DNA from: a virus
Reading direction: 5' to 3' (one strand)
IMG/VR virus record: IMGVR_UViG_3300047496_000172
Location: 42,579 to 106,578 of that record
DNA length: 64,000 bases
The translations under genes were made by a program, and so were the position numbers. Of the stretch, positions 3,098 through 8,864 are shown one piece after another. Numbering within the stretch: the stretch's first letter is position 1; each line of letters opens with the position of its first letter. A model generated the notes under the pieces. It was not told the DNA's origin, ran no database searches, and saw only the letters and a program-made list of their open reading frames with translations.

Positions 3098-3658
3098 TCA
3101 TCTATGATGATCTTGAGAAACAAAATCAGGCAAAGTTTTCATTTTTTCTCTAATTTCCCGTAAGGTTATAGGAGAATAATTCCAGCAATCTACGCCAACA
3201 TCAATCTGTTGTTTGTTTTGGGAAGCCCCACCATGTGAATGTCCAAATAATTGAACGGCACCTTTGTGGCATTTATTAAATATAGCAAATTTAAAATGGC
3301 ACAAGACAATTTTTTGATTTTGGTCGATAATCTCCAAATAAGGTTGAACCGATGCCCAGCGATAAGATTCGATTGTCGTTGGACCATCGTGATTTCCGGT
3401 AATCAAATGTAATTCTTTTCCTTGAAGACGAGAAAGAATGGCGTTTGGATTTGCTTTGTGTCTCCCCAACAAAACATCTCCAAGGACATAAACGCGATCA
3501 TCATCACTGACAACATTATTCCAATTTTTGATTAATGCTTCGTCATGTTCTTCAATGGTCTGGAAGGGCCTGTTGCAAAATTTTAAAATATTTCGCTCTG
3601 AACTTGTGTAATGTCCGTAATGAGGATCGCTTGTATAAAATGTTTTCATCATATCCAT
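3098..3658 (-). CDS. calcineurin-like metallophosphoesterase
   Basis: SDPHYGH, LGD, GNHD, GHSH motifs. Confidence 0.9.
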   Translation of the reverse strand: MDMMKTFYTSDPHYGHYTSSERNILKFCNRPFQTIEEHDEALIKNWNNVVSDDDRVYVLGDVLLGRHKANPNAILSRLQGKELHLITGNHDGPTTIESYRWASVQPYLEIIDQNQKIVLCHFKFAIFNKCHKGAVQLFGHSHGGASQNKQQIDVGVDCWNYSPITLREIREKMKTLPDFVSQDHHR

Positions 3659-3721
3659 TTACACAAAATTATTTTTCTTGTCAACTATTGATTATTTAAA
3701 AAATTATGATATTGTACAGAA

Positions 3722-4042
3722 ATGTATTACCGAGAACCCATATTTCCGCAAACGGTAAAACCAGTATATCTGGTTAAAAATATATTTAGACCTATTGGTG
3801 GTGTTGATCTCAATAAAAAACAACCTAATCATGTAAGTCGTTCTAAAATAAGCCGTCGTCATAAATTTCCAGAGTTGGTTATCCTTGAAAGTAGAGCGAC
3901 GCTTGATCCACCTATCAATAAAAATAGAGCGTCTTGTCGCTATTACTCGGTCAAAGGTAGTGGACGAGACTGGGACTACGATGAACTTATCCATTCAAAA
4001 GAATACGCTTATGCTTGGCTGAATTATTATAGGTCTTGGTAA
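3722..4042 (+). CDS. hypothetical protein, paralog of 4210..4539
   Basis: Shared IFPQ..PVY and LDxPINxNRA..RYYSVKG..DWxYDxLI. Confidence 0.7.
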   Translation: MYYREPIFPQTVKPVYLVKNIFRPIGGVDLNKKQPNHVSRSKISRRHKFPELVILESRATLDPPINKNRASCRYYSVKGSGRDWDYDELIHSKEYAYAWLNYYRSW

Positions 4043-4209
4043 CGTGATCGATTTAATTTTTTATTTGCTTCTATATCTGCTTTATTTCATTAGCCTTCGA
4101 TTGGCTAAACTGCGAAATAGTGCCACATGCAAAATAATCACGGAAGCTATTTTATTTATAGGCTTAATTACTTTTCTTTTCACGCCAATGAAAATTTAAG
4201 AGAGATAAA

Positions 4210-4539
4210 ATGCGTAAAAGATATCATAAAAGACGGAGATATCAAATTTTCCCGCAGAGGATTAGCCCTGTATATATAATTAAGTTTGGAAAATATGGTA
4301 GATACATACCGCATATCGAAAAATCTTACGCAAAATTGGATGAACCGATCAATGGTAATCGCGCCAATTACAGATACTATTCTGTAAAAGGGGATGGCGG
4401 CGATTGGGCTTATGACGATTTGATTCTAACAAAATCCCAATCCATATTAGCGTTGGCCCATTACCGGTTGCATAATATTCATGCTAGGTTTATAGATTAC
4501 GAGAAGAACAGCTTGAAAATTGGAGATCATTCAGCATAG
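4210..4539 (+). CDS. hypothetical protein, paralog of 3722..4042
   Basis: Same shared motifs as 3722..4042. Confidence 0.7.
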   Translation: MRKRYHKRRRYQIFPQRISPVYIIKFGKYGRYIPHIEKSYAKLDEPINGNRANYRYYSVKGDGGDWAYDDLILTKSQSILALAHYRLHNIHARFIDYEKNSLKIGDHSA

Positions 4540-5132
4540 TTTTCCCAGCTATCAGCATATATTCCTTTAAGTTTTTCCAAATATGCGCGCGTTTTTATTT
4601 TAACCATAAAGTCTTCGCCCTTGCAAACGACGCCTTCTTCAACCGGATATTTTCCAGCCCGAACATCTTCTATGAATTCGGAAGTTAGCTCGCCTTCATA
4701 AATTATTTCCGGACACCACTTAAAATCGCAGAATATATTCATAAATTTTTTAACAGGGATGAAACCTTTCTTGAACACGAATATGTCCAATAGTTTCAAC
4801 TGTTTTTCTTCTCCGTCAATATGAGAGCCAGCAAAACTACCTTCTCCAAAGAATTCGGTGAATGCCGTTATACGCTGGCACTTCTTATCCATAGATAAAA
4901 TCATATCTTTAATGGTTTCTGCTGGACCATTGAGAAATAATGGAATGGCTTCATTGTAAATCAGCGTCGTATGATCAAAAAGTTGATGCCGCGTGCCAAA
5001 CTTATGCCAACCTTTTTTAGGAGACCACTCCCAGCGAAGTGAACTCCCATCATATTTATATTGAGCAATAATCGGTTTTCCTAAATACTGAAAAGCTATT
5101 TTAGAACCCGGTATAGATGGATATTGTTGCAT
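4527..5132 (-). CDS. ATP-dependent RNA-ligase-like nucleotidyltransferase (minimal)
   Basis: KYDGS (motif I), FTEFFG, EGVV (motif IV), MVKIK (motif V). Confidence 0.75.
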   Translation of the reverse strand: MQQYPSIPGSKIAFQYLGKPIIAQYKYDGSSLRWEWSPKKGWHKFGTRHQLFDHTTLIYNEAIPLFLNGPAETIKDMILSMDKKCQRITAFTEFFGEGSFAGSHIDGEEKQLKLLDIFVFKKGFIPVKKFMNIFCDFKWCPEIIYEGELTSEFIEDVRAGKYPVEEGVVCKGEDFMVKIKTRAYLEKLKGIYADSWENYAE

Positions 5133-5321
5133 AACCGCCTCAAACTTTAGATAAATACTATTAACAAACTAATTGAAAAATATAATCTGTAATCATTGAC
5201 ACGAACAAATGCCTATCTAAATAGATTAATAAGTCTATATAAGGGAAAGATTATGACAAAATATAGATGCGATATTTGAAAAACAAATAGGTGATGAAGT
5301 TTGTAATCGTTTAGATTAATT

Positions 5322-5395
5322 TGGTGCCGATAGTAAGAATCGAACTTACATCTCCATATTACGAGTATGGCCGTCTACCACTGACATATACCGGC
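5322..5395 (-). tRNA. tRNA-Thr (CGU) with encoded CCA
   Basis: Minus strand GCCGGTA-TA-TGTC AGTGGTA GACG-G-CCATA CT CGT AA TATGG-AGAT-GTAAG TTCGATT CTTAC-TATCGGC-A-CCA folds as a cloverleaf. Confidence 0.93.
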
Positions 5396-5473
5396 TTCTT
5401 GTTCGCCTAGCTCAAACCGTCAGGCGATGCTGGTCGTTCGCGTCAATGTTAGGACGTTGATCATAAAAACTAT

Positions 5474-5716
5474 TTAGCTGACTTTTTTCTTATTGCCAAA
5501 CCATTTTAGACGAATATACCAAAAATAATAAAATAGAGTGGCGATAGGTCGAGTGAAAGGTCTTCCATAGAAAGTCCATTCTGGTGTTTTCATGTAGGCA
5601 TCCATTCGAAGTTTTCCTTCTTCAATAGGAATGATTTTACCCAGACCTTCTCCTTGTAGAATAGTTATCTTCTTACCATTTTCGTAACGAATTATTTCCT
5701 TAACCATAGTTGACAT
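5474..5716 (-). CDS. hypothetical protein
   Basis: ORF only. Confidence 0.55.
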   Translation of the reverse strand: MSTMVKEIIRYENGKKITILQGEGLGKIIPIEEGKLRMDAYMKTPEWTFYGRPFTRPIATLFYYFWYIRLKWFGNKKKVS

Positions 5717-5792
5717 TCCGCAATTTTGTGTTAATGTTAGTTTACCATAGCAAAAAAGGTTTTACAATGCCATTTCGACGGAGAGAAATATA

Positions 5793-6581
5793 ATGTCTAA
5801 AGTGACCTGGATTCTTGAACGCGATGTTTTCGCGGAAGTTTGCTTCAATGAAATGATCGATCATTTCAAGGCGAACGATATTCCTTATCGTGTCGTCAGG
5901 ATCATTCCATTTATTCATGAAATTGAAGGAAAGGTTCCGCAGGTTTCCGATCCGGTTGTCGTCTATGGCAGCATCGGTGTGCAAACCCTGGCTCAACGCC
6001 ATGGATGGGTTCCTGGCGTATGGACTAATGACAATTTCGCATCTGGTGGTTCGACCGAGATTTCTGATCTTCTGGTAAACGGTTCTTTTGAAATTATGAA
6101 GTTGAGCGAAGTCGCCGACAAGGTAATGCTCGATGAATTTTTCATCAAACCCAATAGCGACAACAAAGAATTCGCTGGAATGGTTATTACTCGCGAAGAA
6201 TTTGGTGTTTGGCATGCTAAGATGCTCGACATCAACTATTTGGAAACCGATGACTTTGATGTTATCGTGGCGCCATATCGAAAGCTTGGTTGCGAATGGC
6301 GAGTGGTCGTAGTGAATGGAAAGATCAGTTCAGCATCGATCTATCGGCAATACGGTATCGTCAAGCCAGAACGTCATATTATTCCAGAAGTGGAAAGCAT
6401 TGTAATGGAAGCGCATAGCCGATTTGTGCCCGCACCAGTATATGTAGTAGACGTAGCACAGGTCGGAGATGAATACAAAATCATCGAATATAACACCTTC
6501 AATTCAGCCGGTCTGTATGCTTGTGATGTTGGAAAGATCATCGATGACATTAACGCTTTCCTTTTAGATCAAGCTCAATGA
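5793..6581 (+). CDS. ATP-grasp protein (R2K/DUF4343-like)
   Basis: YGS, FFIKP..K.FAG, EWR.VVV.G, YVVDVA, IIEYN.FNSAGLY. Confidence 0.85.
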   Translation: MSKVTWILERDVFAEVCFNEMIDHFKANDIPYRVVRIIPFIHEIEGKVPQVSDPVVVYGSIGVQTLAQRHGWVPGVWTNDNFASGGSTEISDLLVNGSFEIMKLSEVADKVMLDEFFIKPNSDNKEFAGMVITREEFGVWHAKMLDINYLETDDFDVIVAPYRKLGCEWRVVVVNGKISSASIYRQYGIVKPERHIIPEVESIVMEAHSRFVPAPVYVVDVAQVGDEYKIIEYNTFNSAGLYACDVGKIIDDINAFLLDQAQ

Positions 6582-6588
6582 TCTAAAT

Positions 6589-6804
6589 ATGCTCATGATA
6601 AAGTGGTCACCATTGCTGGTTTTTGGACCTATCACCGCTTTGCTGGTGGCGATGGTGATCATTCATTGGAGCAAGAAAAATTATGGTCAAGCCATGATTT
6701 ATGCCACTATACTTTCTTTTTGGGTAATTTTTGAATTGCCCTTAGTTGGATGGATGGCAATACATCTTCATCAACAATTAGCTGGTCTTTTTCATTGGAG
6801 CTAA
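6589..6804 (+). CDS. small membrane protein
   Basis: Two hydrophobic segments. Confidence 0.55.
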   Translation: MLMIKWSPLLVFGPITALLVAMVIIHWSKKNYGQAMIYATILSFWVIFELPLVGWMAIHLHQQLAGLFHWS

Positions 6805-6805
6805 A

Positions 6806-7501
6806 TTACCAAACTTGATCCATATACCCTTTCATGAATTTTTTAGCTGACATAGACTTTCCTTTTTCGTGATTTACAACGGTATCATCTTGAAATCTTA
6901 GCGTAAAATTTTTATCAGATCGCATTCCACTACCGACTTGGTTTTTTCTATCTTTTGCGATAGCGGAATATTTTTCTGAATTACTTCTTTCGTCGAGTGT
7001 TTTTATGATCGCTTCTTTTGCGTCTCGTAGATTAGATATTCTTTCTCTTCCTTGTCTTGCTTCTATAATACCAGTTGGTATATGAATTAATCGACAAGAG
7101 TTGGGGTGACGATTTCGATGTTGGCCGCCATTTCCGGTTCCAGAGAACCATTCCACGCGAAAATCGTCATCAGATCGTTTTGAATAAATGTCTGAAGTTG
7201 TTGTTTCAGGATTTATGACAGCACAAGTTATAGTTGAGGAATGAACGCGTCCTCGTTTTTCAGTAGGAGAAACACGCTGGGTTCTTATTCCACCAGAACC
7301 ATTATGTAAAATTTCGAGATCGGCGCCAATAATTTCGATTGCAACTTCGGCATACCCTGCATCAGATGGGCGTTCTCTGACGATGCGGGACTTTCAACCT
7401 TTACGAGTCGCCAGCTTTAAATAAGCCTTCATCAAATCAGCACAAAACATACTCGCGTCGAGTCCGCCTTCACCTGATCGTAATTCCACAATGCGAATCA
7501 T
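6806..7501 (-). CDS. class-I peptide chain release factor-like protein lacking domain 1, with in-frame UGA at codon 36 (7394..7396)
   Basis: SD AAGGAG and ATG at 7501; MIRIVELRSGEGGLDA...ATRKG*KSRIV...QRVSPTEKRGRVHSST...WFSGTGNGGQHRN all in one frame (7501-7156 = 115 codons); 231 aa if read through. Confidence 0.9.
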
Positions 7502-7607
7502 AATAAAATCTCCTTCGTATTTTTATTTAGCATTATAGGTTGACTTTTGTCAAGAAATTAGTTAAAAAATAATATGACAACCTTCCGGCAAACCATGGAT
7601 TTTTTAA

Positions 7608-8045
7608 ATGGACAGTAATATTACATACGAAGAGTTTGAAGAACTCTGCCGTGAAGCTATTCGCGATAAAGAAAAAGCGTATTGGTTAGCTGAAGAAGGT
7701 AATTTGAATCGATACAATCCTACTGTCGATCTTCAATATTATACTGAAGGTAGATGGTCTACTGGCGGCCAGGGTGGCGGTAGTTGCTGGGATGAAGGTG
7801 AATCTCATTACTACGCGTTAGAAGGTGAGCAAGAGCCAAAGGACGAATATCTATCCTTGTTTTTGTTAAAAATCGTTCCAGAATTGACTTACGCGCAATT
7901 TGTAAATCTTGAAAAATCTGAATTTTTTGAGTATTCTACGGAATATCAAAACGAATATTACGGAAATTATACGACATATGGTATTCGTAAGTTCAACTTA
8001 CGAACTCTCTATGATGTTTTAAAACAGATGTCTGTAAATGGATAG
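7608..8045 (+). CDS. hypothetical phage protein, paralog of 8038..8472
   Basis: MDSNxTYEEFE, WxxGGxxGGxCW and EYYGNYT shared. Confidence 0.8.
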   Translation: MDSNITYEEFEELCREAIRDKEKAYWLAEEGNLNRYNPTVDLQYYTEGRWSTGGQGGGSCWDEGESHYYALEGEQEPKDEYLSLFLLKIVPELTYAQFVNLEKSEFFEYSTEYQNEYYGNYTTYGIRKFNLRTLYDVLKQMSVNG

Positions 8046-8472
8046 CAATACGACATACGAAGAATTCGAGAACAAAGTCAGAGATGTTATTATCTCTGTC
8101 CATAAGCCGCAAATCTGCGTCAGAGATAATAAGGCCAAGGTTGGATACAAATACATTCCAGATACGAAATTTGATATTAACACTTATCTAACGCTTAAAT
8201 GGGAAATTGGTGGAGCCAGGGGCGGAAATTGTTGGGGTGATGATGCTTGCCAATATACCAGCTATACAGAAGAACCCGATTTTACTTTATTGGATAGCAT
8301 CTTAGAAGCAATTGTTCCTGATATTTCTTTTTTGAAATACAAATCAATCGTTTCGCAAGTTATCATAAGAAAAAGTGGGACTGATATGGAGTATTATGGA
8401 AATTATACTGATTATAAGACCAAAACTCTTGATCTTCAAAAACTTTATTATTTGTTGTTTGGTGACCAATGA
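8038..8472 (+). CDS. hypothetical phage protein, paralog of 7608..8045
   Basis: Same shared motifs as 7608..8045. Confidence 0.8.
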   Translation: MDSNTTYEEFENKVRDVIISVHKPQICVRDNKAKVGYKYIPDTKFDINTYLTLKWEIGGARGGNCWGDDACQYTSYTEEPDFTLLDSILEAIVPDISFLKYKSIVSQVIIRKSGTDMEYYGNYTDYKTKTLDLQKLYYLLFGDQ

Positions 8473-8864
8473 TCGAAGTAAAAGTTCTGGTAGGATTGCC
8501 TGGATCGGGTAAATCTTACTATGCCAACACGATTGTTGATGCTGAGACAACCATCATTGATGATTTGAATAGAAATCTGACGGCATTAGAAGAATTCAAA
8601 AATAATCCTACGTCAAAATTGATCATTACTGATCCCTCAGCTTCACTATCATCTCCTGATAAAATAAAAGAAAAGGTTATTCAATGGCTCGGTGAAGATG
8701 CGACAGTTGATATCTTCGCATTTGAAAATGATTTAGAAGCTTGCTGGGCTAATGTCGTTCGGCGAAATGATGGTCGGATCATATCTAAACCCTACATGAA
8801 ATCGTTGAGTAAGTTTTACGATCCAGCCATATTTGATAAAATTTTACCTGTTTATCGACCTTAA
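8469..8864 (+). CDS. small P-loop kinase (polynucleotide-kinase-like)
   Basis: VLVGLPGSGKS Walker A; NVVRR lid. Confidence 0.75.
   Translation: MIEVKVLVGLPGSGKSYYANTIVDAETTIIDDLNRNLTALEEFKNNPTSKLIITDPSASLSSPDKIKEKVIQWLGEDATVDIFAFENDLEACWANVVRRNDGRIISKPYMKSLSKFYDPAIFDKILPVYRP

Follow-up and report, generated by a model that had tools for sequence, protein, structure and literature searches.

Bacterial prfB is the textbook example, and the only known one, of a release factor (RF) gene regulated by an internal stop codon. In phage Qbeta, the normal tRNATrp now and then decodes the leaky UGA of the coat gene as Trp, which gives rise to the A1 protein. A survey of bacterial genes detected no programmed recoding in prfA and at no point TAG in the prfB motif (Prince et al. 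2025). Phages are also known to carry RF1 and RF2 genes (Al-Shayeb et al. 2020; Borges et al. 2021; Liu et al. 2023), which have been described as standard-code genes or merely listed. Here we describe a short RF gene with a UGA codon in its frame, found in a 64,000-nucleotide stretch of viral DNA (the window) that comprises bases 42579-106578 of a 106.6-kb IMG/VR contig (G000) from a moss metagenome, rated by CheckV as ~18% complete. The explanation we favor, with a probability of roughly 0.55, is that the phage makes an RF1-type factor consisting of domains 2-4 by programmed readthrough of a conserved UGA at codon 36, with Trp inserted, and that this codon is a prfB-like gate responding to UGA termination capacity. 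The phage would thereby probably tie the output of its own termination factor to the efficiency with which the host cell terminates at UGA.

The gene lies on the minus strand. A preliminary description, made from the sequence, had recognized its Shine-Dalgarno (SD) sequence, its ATG at 7501 and its lone TGA at 7394..7396, and reading of the sequence bears this out: from the ATG (7501-7499) to the TAA (6808-6806), the only interruption is the TGA at 7396-7394 (AAA GGT TGA AAG). Open reading frame (ORF) finders call only a 116-amino-acid fragment with a GTG start here. The features of the gene, all on the minus strand, are as follows.

6806..7501, minus strand: short gene for a class I release factor of the RF1 type; 231 sense codons followed by TAA, encoding just domains 2-4
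7510..7516, minus strand: SD-like GAAGGAG, 8 nucleotides (nt) 5' of the ATG, by direct reading of the letters
7397..7501, minus strand: codons 1-35, encoding the first strand and helix of domain 2, 5' of the gate; conserved protein, dN/dS 0.099
7394..7396, minus strand: in-frame TGA, codon 36, the putative recoding gate; at the conserved RF1 Trp, present in 79/79 homologues
7382..7389, minus strand: 5' arm of a predicted hairpin that begins 5-6 nt past the UGA (alignment A2, RNAalifold)
7356..7363, minus strand: 3' arm of the hairpin, with an 18-nt loop separating the arms (alignment A2, RNAalifold)
7262..7270, minus strand: codon recognition tripeptide S78-P79-T80; the family consensus is P-P-T
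7121..7129, minus strand: GGQ catalytic motif, G125-G126-Q127, invariant in 25 relatives
6806..6808, minus strand: true terminator TAA, the end of the 231-codon frame

Translated with TGA as Trp, the gene gives a 231-amino-acid product that matches the Pfam families PCRF (PF03462; 9e-21) and RF-1 (PF00472; 4e-13). The NCBIfam scores are 2.8e-47 for prfA, 8e-24 for prfB, and 4e-10 for prfH, and the 161 bits obtained with the prfA equivalog TIGR00019 are below its cutoff of 423. Two further claims of the preliminary description hold. First, domain 1 is absent, because the alignment begins at residue 113 of E. coli RF1; this domain is not needed for codon recognition or peptide release, though it is required for RF3-stimulated recycling (PMC1586002). 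Second, the TGA aligns with the Trp of RF1 ("RKGW" in Thermotoga maritima and "ARRW" in E. coli), a site that is aromatic in known factors, with Trp in RF1 and Phe in RF2. Residues E11, G12, G13, D15, Y27, and G35 are invariant in 25 family sequences. An AlphaFold model of the read-through product, made with these 25 sequences, has a mean confidence (pLDDT) of 88.9, and the block spanning the UGA junction, residues 31-40, reaches 97. The top structural matches of the model are ribosome-bound RF1 proteins, with template modeling (TM) scores of 0.87-0.90 and root mean square deviations of 2.5-2.9 Å; the match to RF2 is slightly lower (24-26% identity). Since the site aligns with the RF1 Trp and falls within a confidently modeled fold, Trp is the expected residue, and since both halves share one frame (GGT TGA AAG), the recoding event would be readthrough, not frameshifting. 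No codon for a restart after the TGA is conserved among the homologues, and a promoter/terminator scan gave nothing above shuffled sequences.

How well is the internal stop conserved? An initial IMG/VR scan returned four homologues at 44-48% identity, all with diverged DNA and all with TGA at the same codon. A profile scan of IMG/VR yielded 360 relatives, and TGA occupies the gate codon in all of the best 80, which were the ones inspected there. The pooled set on which the following counts are based holds 79 distinct nucleotide sequences at 45-62% identity, from independent metagenomes and two bacterial assemblies. The preliminary description had reasoned that TGG at this codon in all homologues would mark a private mutation or sequencing error; the opposite is found, with TGA as the internal stop in 79/79 genes, mostly at codon 36. 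Trp codons elsewhere in these genes are TGG in 165/165 cases, and 69 genes finish with TAA, 8 with TGA, and 2 with TAG. Purifying selection, which had also been named as a check, is equal on the two sides: among pairs at 70-93% identity, the ratio of nonsynonymous to synonymous change (dN/dS) comes to 0.099 for the codons before the TGA and 0.104 for those after it, although synonymous sites in this comparison are near saturation (dS 1.4-2.0). The relatives thus display what readthrough is expected to leave behind, namely, a conserved in-frame stop with coding constraint on both sides. A maximum-likelihood tree likewise indicates deep divergence, many terminal branches being longer than one change per site. 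It follows that the two halves are translated in-frame as a single constrained protein, and, given the high dS, that the single A-to-G step to TGG is selected against.

The nearest homologue of the window's RF is the gene of the complete phage genome G005, at 62% identity. Searched against GenBank phages, the region had no megablast match, and tblastn against the same phages found only sequences at <38% identity, many of them bacterial prfA or prfB on contaminant contigs. The two alphaproteobacterial assemblies that carry TGA-gated short RF genes, Thalassospira xianhensis MCCC 1A02616 (L194; NZ_JPWA01000008.1, a 157.9-kb contig) and Pararhizobium sp. BT-229 (L195; a 1.6-Mb contig, tripeptide P-P-N), offer a clue to the host as well as culturable material. 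In public protein sets (hits P0005-P0124), family members are full length only on contigs of ≤2.5 kb, while those on long contigs are truncated, at 56-83% coverage. This pattern is probably an annotation artifact of automatic code choice (code 4 on short contigs), and it hides the gate.

Conservation of an in-frame TGA would be trivial if the genomes had reassigned the codon. They have not: the contig itself and seven complete relatives use the standard code. Read with code 11, the contig has a coding density of 92%, and 51/171 selected ORFs end in TGA, as does the ORF at 5793-6581 beside the RF gene, which agrees with the earlier view that the genome is not globally recoded. The seven relatives (G001, G005, G009, G011, G013, G015, and G018) have terminal repeats, are 235-578 kb in size, and encode 40-69 tRNAs; with code 11 their coding density is 92-94%, and TGA ends 32-49% of selected ORFs. 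Code 11 density equals or exceeds that of code 4 in G000, G001, G009, G011, G013, and G018 and is lower in G015 (0.919 versus 0.924) and in GC-rich G005 (0.924 versus 0.949), where the code 4 value is inflated because of long spurious ORFs. Homology surveys of the genomes for further in-frame TGA or TAG codons turned up alternate-frame shadows and end-of-gene artifacts, with nothing conserved besides the RF gene. Each of the five complete genomes examined for RF-domain genes has exactly one.

The surroundings of the internal TGA are depleted in signals for strong termination. The base 3' of it is A in 55 of the 79 genes (70%), while 18 have G, 6 have C, and U never occurs there, whereas at 1,119 genuine TGA terminators from the same genomes U is the commonest base (34%) and A accounts for 25%. 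A U following the stop reportedly makes the strongest termination context in E. coli, as Poole et al. are said to have found in 1995, and an A following UGA is said, after work of Engelberg-Kulka from 1981, to favor decoding by the normal tRNATrp. The 63 nt 3' of the TGA are also more stably folded than control windows of the same genes (-16.4 versus -11.7 kcal/mol). In alignment A2, which comprises 11 sequences (the window's clade plus L065, L066, and L071), a stem of 7-8 bp with an 18-nt loop starts 5-6 nt past the UGA, and RNAalifold predicts the same stem; the hairpin has an internal upper stem as well. Of the cells in this stem, 89.8% are paired, compared with 24-51% in slid-partner controls, and its covariation score was reached by 0/500 shuffles. 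The compensatory pairs are 18:43 (C-G, A-U, and U-A) and 19:42 (G-C and A-U), the covariation amounts to about four independent events, and several of these couple a synonymous change with an amino acid change. At that spacing, a hairpin would sit at the mRNA entrance, where recoding stimulators usually lie, once the UGA occupies the A site, and this one probably boosts readthrough in the window's clade. Two other genes, L091 and L105, have a separate 10-bp hairpin at the same distance from the UGA.

How might such a gate operate? In E. coli, UGA readthrough reflects competition between Trp-tRNATrp in complex with EF-Tu and RF2, which is aided by RF3, and overexpression of tRNATrp increases it (PMC10570021); the model proposed here, a Trp-inserting competition, derives from this. 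The majority of ribosomes would stop at codon 36 and release a 35-amino-acid peptide. A minority would insert Trp at the UGA, mostly by means of near-cognate Trp-tRNATrp(CCA) of host or phage origin, and complete the factor. The completed fraction would grow as RF2 capacity falls relative to Trp-tRNATrp, and the tRNA-Trp supplied by the phage (present in 7/7 complete genomes) would contribute to the decoding side of the competition. Termination at UAA and UAG would then pass to the RF1-type factor, leaving RF2 free for UGA; as UGA termination recovered, the gate would close, completing an indirect negative feedback loop. Should the rare SPT variant of the tripeptide, which the window carries, read UGA, the loop would be directly autoregulatory.

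Several points weigh against this model. The feedback is indirect and its benefit inferred, since factors with the family's usual PPT tripeptide should not read UGA. The lack of U after the internal TGA (Fisher P ~5e-14) was evaluated with the kinship of the sequences ignored. The window's own stem is weak, with one C·A mismatch and a z score of -0.98; RNAalifold applied to the whole family yielded no consensus structure, and most other clades have no hairpin or at most a 4-bp CGCC/GGCG pairing. Finally, ARAGORN may overlook unusual phage tRNAs, and a suppressor tRNA may sit elsewhere in the genome because the contig is only ~18% of it.

More distant relatives carry interruptions of other kinds. 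Among huge-phage records are short RF genes without domain 1, at 30-37% identity, that are broken by other means. In LR745206, LR756502, and LR756504, the canonical site is occupied by Phe or Leu, and one or two TGAs follow 5-13 codons later; in 50-kb samples of AT-rich LR745206 and LR756504, densities under code 11 against code 4 are 0.930 versus 0.933 and 0.910 versus 0.917. The gene of LR745208 joins two frames at CGG AGG GGT CTT TGA C, the canonical prfB cassette, and the 50 kb sampled from this record use the standard code. A second IMG/VR sample of 71 nonredundant distant genes was sorted by type of gate:

readthrough, one TGA: 23/71
readthrough, two TGAs: 14/71
readthrough, TGA plus TAG: 2/71
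readthrough, TAG: 3/71
+1 frameshift, CTT TGA: 12/71
+1 frameshift, CTT TAG: 6/71
+1 frameshift, AAC TGA: 1/71
intact: 8/71; gate type not assigned: 2/71

The prfB-type CTT TGA cassettes in these distant relatives echo the logic of the gate. The genes with two stops may depend on suppressor tRNAs or recoding. As for the individual loci, in the 12 nonredundant genes with CTT TGA the sequence CGGAGGGG often stands upstream, and L268 (LR745208.1, ~63.5-64.1 kb) is the short RF gene split over two frames at the prfB-type cassette. Further split-frame loci of the prfB type are L311, L312, L318, L319, L328, L330, L331, L334-L341, L343, L345, L346, and L349. The CTT TAG cassettes of six genes hold a stop that is specific to RF1 and was never seen in prfB by Prince et al. 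In an AT-rich megaphage lineage (L267, L269, L270, L274-L310, and others), Phe or Leu occupies the canonical Trp site, and in-frame TGA, sometimes TAG, occurs at other codons ("SI*LTG" and "EH*RDG"), often twice per gene.

Which other explanations could account for a conserved UGA? An unlikely one is that a dedicated phage suppressor tRNA with a UCA anticodon decodes the codon, so that the factor is made only once the tRNA program starts; the stop would then act as a timer or a "code-change module," and not as a sensor of RF2. One complete genome, G001, does encode a UCA tRNA (55 bits), in a noncoding stretch 1.7 kb from the RF gene, and the RF gene lies inside tRNA arrays in 51/80 loci. The paired in-frame stops of many distant relatives (two TGAs in 14, TGA plus TAG in 2) would hardly be passable by natural leakiness. 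Among recoded phage genomes, those with a detectable suppressor tRNA amount to no more than 35-40% (Borges et al., bioRxiv 10.1101/2021.08.26.457843). Two of five complete genomes encode a tryptophanyl-tRNA synthetase (TrpRS). These TrpRS genes (G005:321124-322263 and G009:50345-51328, in megaphages of 578 and 517 kb that both encode tRNA-Trp as well) are, however, >240 kb away from the RF gene. The UCA tRNA was not found in the other 6/7 complete genomes, whereas tRNA-Trp(CCA) is present in all seven, and 0/80 loci have a UCA tRNA within 2.5 kb of the RF gene. On the window's own contig, no suppressor tRNA was found by ARAGORN (default and relaxed) or Rfam tRNA (E ≤ 10). G002 keeps its TGA even though ~48 nt of tRNA body are gone at the site syntenic to the G001 tRNA. 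Since TGA ranks first or second among the terminators of these genomes, an efficient suppressor would also be costly.

Some other tRNA observations can be recorded here. Outside the window, at G000:20220-20279 beside tRNA-Asp and tRNA-Gly, lies a degenerate tRNA-like sequence that scores 28.8 bits, just under the Rfam cutoff; its anticodon loop reads UUCUCAG, and ARAGORN detects no acceptor stem in it. This sequence was the sole additional candidate from the suppressor tRNA search on the contig. A phage tRNA-Trp of the Hirsh type (U11:A24) was considered as a reader of UGA and dropped, as that pair is common in normal tRNATrp and hence is not diagnostic. Six of the seven complete standard-code genomes with the RF gene encode a well-scoring, amber-reading CUA tRNA, and in these six no TAG recoding of genes is detectable. 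In three genomes, the CUA tRNA has, no more than ~1 kb away, a gene of ~190 amino acids that contains an "IYHDCGKPF" motif. In the copy of G009, an in-frame TAG at 118802 aligns with a Trp of the G001 homologue, and this may be a second stop-gated gene. The positions are as follows.

G001:254867-254942, CUA tRNA
G005:109999-110155, two CUA tRNAs
G009:117291-117364, CUA tRNA
G011:157384-157460, CUA tRNA
G013:363408-363482, CUA tRNA
G015:255570-255644, CUA tRNA
G001:255699-256298, "IYHDCGKPF" gene
G009, ~118.6-119.2 kb, "IYHDCGKPF" gene
G015, ~256 kb, "IYHDCGKPF" gene

A different possibility, improbable on the present evidence, is true autoregulation as in prfB, in which the factor itself recognizes UGA, at least in its SPT variant and possibly with PPT too. 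The argument turns on the tripeptide that reads the stop codon. Under the tripeptide rule, PxT marks RF1 and SP[F/Y] marks RF2. The window's S-P-T (7270-7262) joins the Ser-Pro of the RF2 motif SPF with the Thr of PxT and does not conform to PxT, whereas the PPT of 76/79 relatives does; the others are SPT in two genes (the window and L105) and PPN in one (L195). Because the window and L105 belong to separate clades with good support, Pro must have been replaced by Ser independently, at least twice in the family, and SPT is seen again in the distant genes L292, L339, and L343. Tripeptide swaps of an SPT-like type have reportedly broadened stop specificity, in experiments attributed to Ito et al. 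in 2000. The CTT TAG cassettes of distant PPT-type genes would be recognized by their own product if it is an RF1-type factor. Against self-recognition of UGA stand the predominance of PPT, the RF1-type residues Q75 and H87 around the tripeptide, which are invariant (the residue following His87 is Ser in the window and Thr in most relatives), the profile and fold, both nearer RF1 than RF2, and the occurrence of the same PPT motif with UGA gates and with UAG gates. From their motif, PPT factors are predicted to read UAA and UAG, not UGA.

The preliminary description had made much of the hybrid SPT motif and of a likeness to PrfH. The motif is present, though it is not what defines the family, and because PPT is found in 76/79 genes, the idea of a broad or rescue specificity is speculative and concerns a rare variant. 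The proposed role as a backup for host RF2 that is depleted or attacked is conjecture; the majority of the family is predicted to be of the RF1 type and would not itself read UGA. The likeness to PrfH (RFH), which is partnered with RtcB2, extends to the missing domain 1 and the retained GGQ. The PrfH tripeptide, however, is SxY, where this family has PPT or SPT; the window's product scores 39.6 bits with the PrfH model TIGR03072, far from the cutoff of 166.65, and its fold is nearer RF1 than PrfH, with a TM score of 0.68 for PrfH against 0.87-0.90 for RF1. No RtcB homologue was found among ten ORFs scanned beside the RF gene. What endures of the preliminary description is its core, a conserved and functional UGA gate, which has strong support; a gate responding to weak UGA termination is the most economical reading of a UGA conserved in 79/79 genes. 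Its emphasis on SPT and PrfH is not borne out.

It is also doubtful that the UGA is a fixed attenuator with no sensing role, which would simply hold down the dose of a potentially toxic factor. The readthrough mechanism would be identical to that of the sensing gate, and toxicity is conceivable, as a factor without domain 1 would not be recycled by RF3 (PMC1586002); in B. subtilis, RF overexpression lowers fitness (PMC12421855). Yet a weak ribosome-binding site or promoter would suffice for attenuation, and the TGA is invariant over saturating divergence. Other lineages, moreover, have arrived at UGA or UAG gates by different recoding mechanisms, and any readthrough gate responds to the RF2/tRNATrp balance, "intended" or not.

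Insertion of selenocysteine, with the downstream hairpin as a selenocysteine insertion sequence, is very improbable. A hairpin with an internal upper stem does begin a few nucleotides past the UGA, and ARAGORN labels the G001 UCA tRNA "SeC"; that label, however, reflects only the anticodon of a 72-nt tRNA with a short variable loop and without tRNA-Sec architecture, the hairpin is lacking in most clades that keep the TGA, and the site is that of a conserved aromatic residue. A private nonsense mutation, sequencing error, or decaying pseudogene from which at most the GGQ half is made, as the 116-amino-acid call and the truncated database proteins might suggest, is refuted by the same TGA in 79 independent assemblies under equal purifying selection on both sides, with no conserved restart codon and a coherent, high-confidence fold across the junction.

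The readthrough gate may belong to a broader pattern. As a tentative generalization, which we regard as possible, giant phages as a group might gate their own RF by stop-sensing recoding, be it UGA or UAG readthrough or +1 frameshifting, and so measure and retune host termination, with the recurrent SPT representing evolution toward recognition of UGA. If this is true, the CUU UAG cassette would be the first natural RF1-type autoregulatory frameshift.

The neighborhood of the RF gene was compared with Pfam over 3098-8864. The ORF at 5793-6581 is a clear R2K ATP-grasp; those at 3098-3658 and 8469-8864 weakly match metallophosphoesterase and P-loop/AAA_33, respectively. The ORF at 4527-5132, with a KYDG motif, has no Pfam match, and the tandem paralogues at 7608-8045 and 8038-8472 match no family. 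One tRNA gene lies in this region:

5322-5395, tRNA-Thr(CGT)

What would a gated phage RF mean? The logic of prfB would operate in a giant-phage family with hundreds of members from many environments and more than 534 relatives in IMG/VR, by readthrough in the family itself and by UGA or UAG frameshifting in sister lineages. The family offers a testable system for studying how phages monitor and adjust host termination, what role an RF without domain 1 plays, and whether PPT and SPT loops alter stop codon specificity. For this family, counts of phage RF content and of "pseudogenes" in viral databases are wrong because gene callers split or truncate the genes. RF genes regulated by recoding are already known, and the RF1-type readthrough version in phages is apparently undescribed: no published description of stop-gated phage RFs was found in full-text literature of incomplete coverage, and neither Borges et al. 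nor Al-Shayeb et al. (2020) mentions in-frame stops in RF genes.

Among phages, the closest parallels are the Jade phages (Borges et al., bioRxiv 10.1101/2021.08.26.457843), in which RF1 belongs to a "code-change module" and, as here, lies among tRNA genes in very large genomes, and the huge phages, for which RF1 and RF2 genes, likewise phage encoded, have been listed (Al-Shayeb et al. 2020, PMC7162821). In the Jade phages, however, the module genes follow the standard code and recoding at TGA affects the late genes, whereas here the genome is standard and no credible gene other than the RF gene has an in-frame TGA. The window's family has no consistently present suppressor tRNA and, in the five complete genomes examined, no TrpRS beside the RF gene.

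The Qbeta coat gene offers a likeness of mechanism, in that it too is a phage gene whose leaky UGA is read as Trp by a near-cognate tRNATrp. Readthrough in Qbeta extends a protein that is already functional; termination at the gate of the window's gene would leave a useless 35-amino-acid peptide, so that every functional molecule would need readthrough, and, unlike in Qbeta, the site is the codon of a structurally conserved Trp.

The likeness of regulatory logic is to prfB. The +1 frameshift of prfB joins two frames at CUU UGA with the help of an upstream SD-like element, and the window's gene instead reads AAA GGT TGA AAG within a single frame. Its product also differs from that of prfB in being RF1 type, lacking domain 1, being predicted not to read UGA, and being phage encoded, and its feedback would be indirect. 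Nonetheless, prfB (SD-like element, CUU UGA C) is likewise an RF gene broken early by an in-frame UGA, which here is codon 36, and in prfB productive decoding of that UGA competes with termination by RF2, so that output drops when termination is efficient; the same logic would govern the phage gene.

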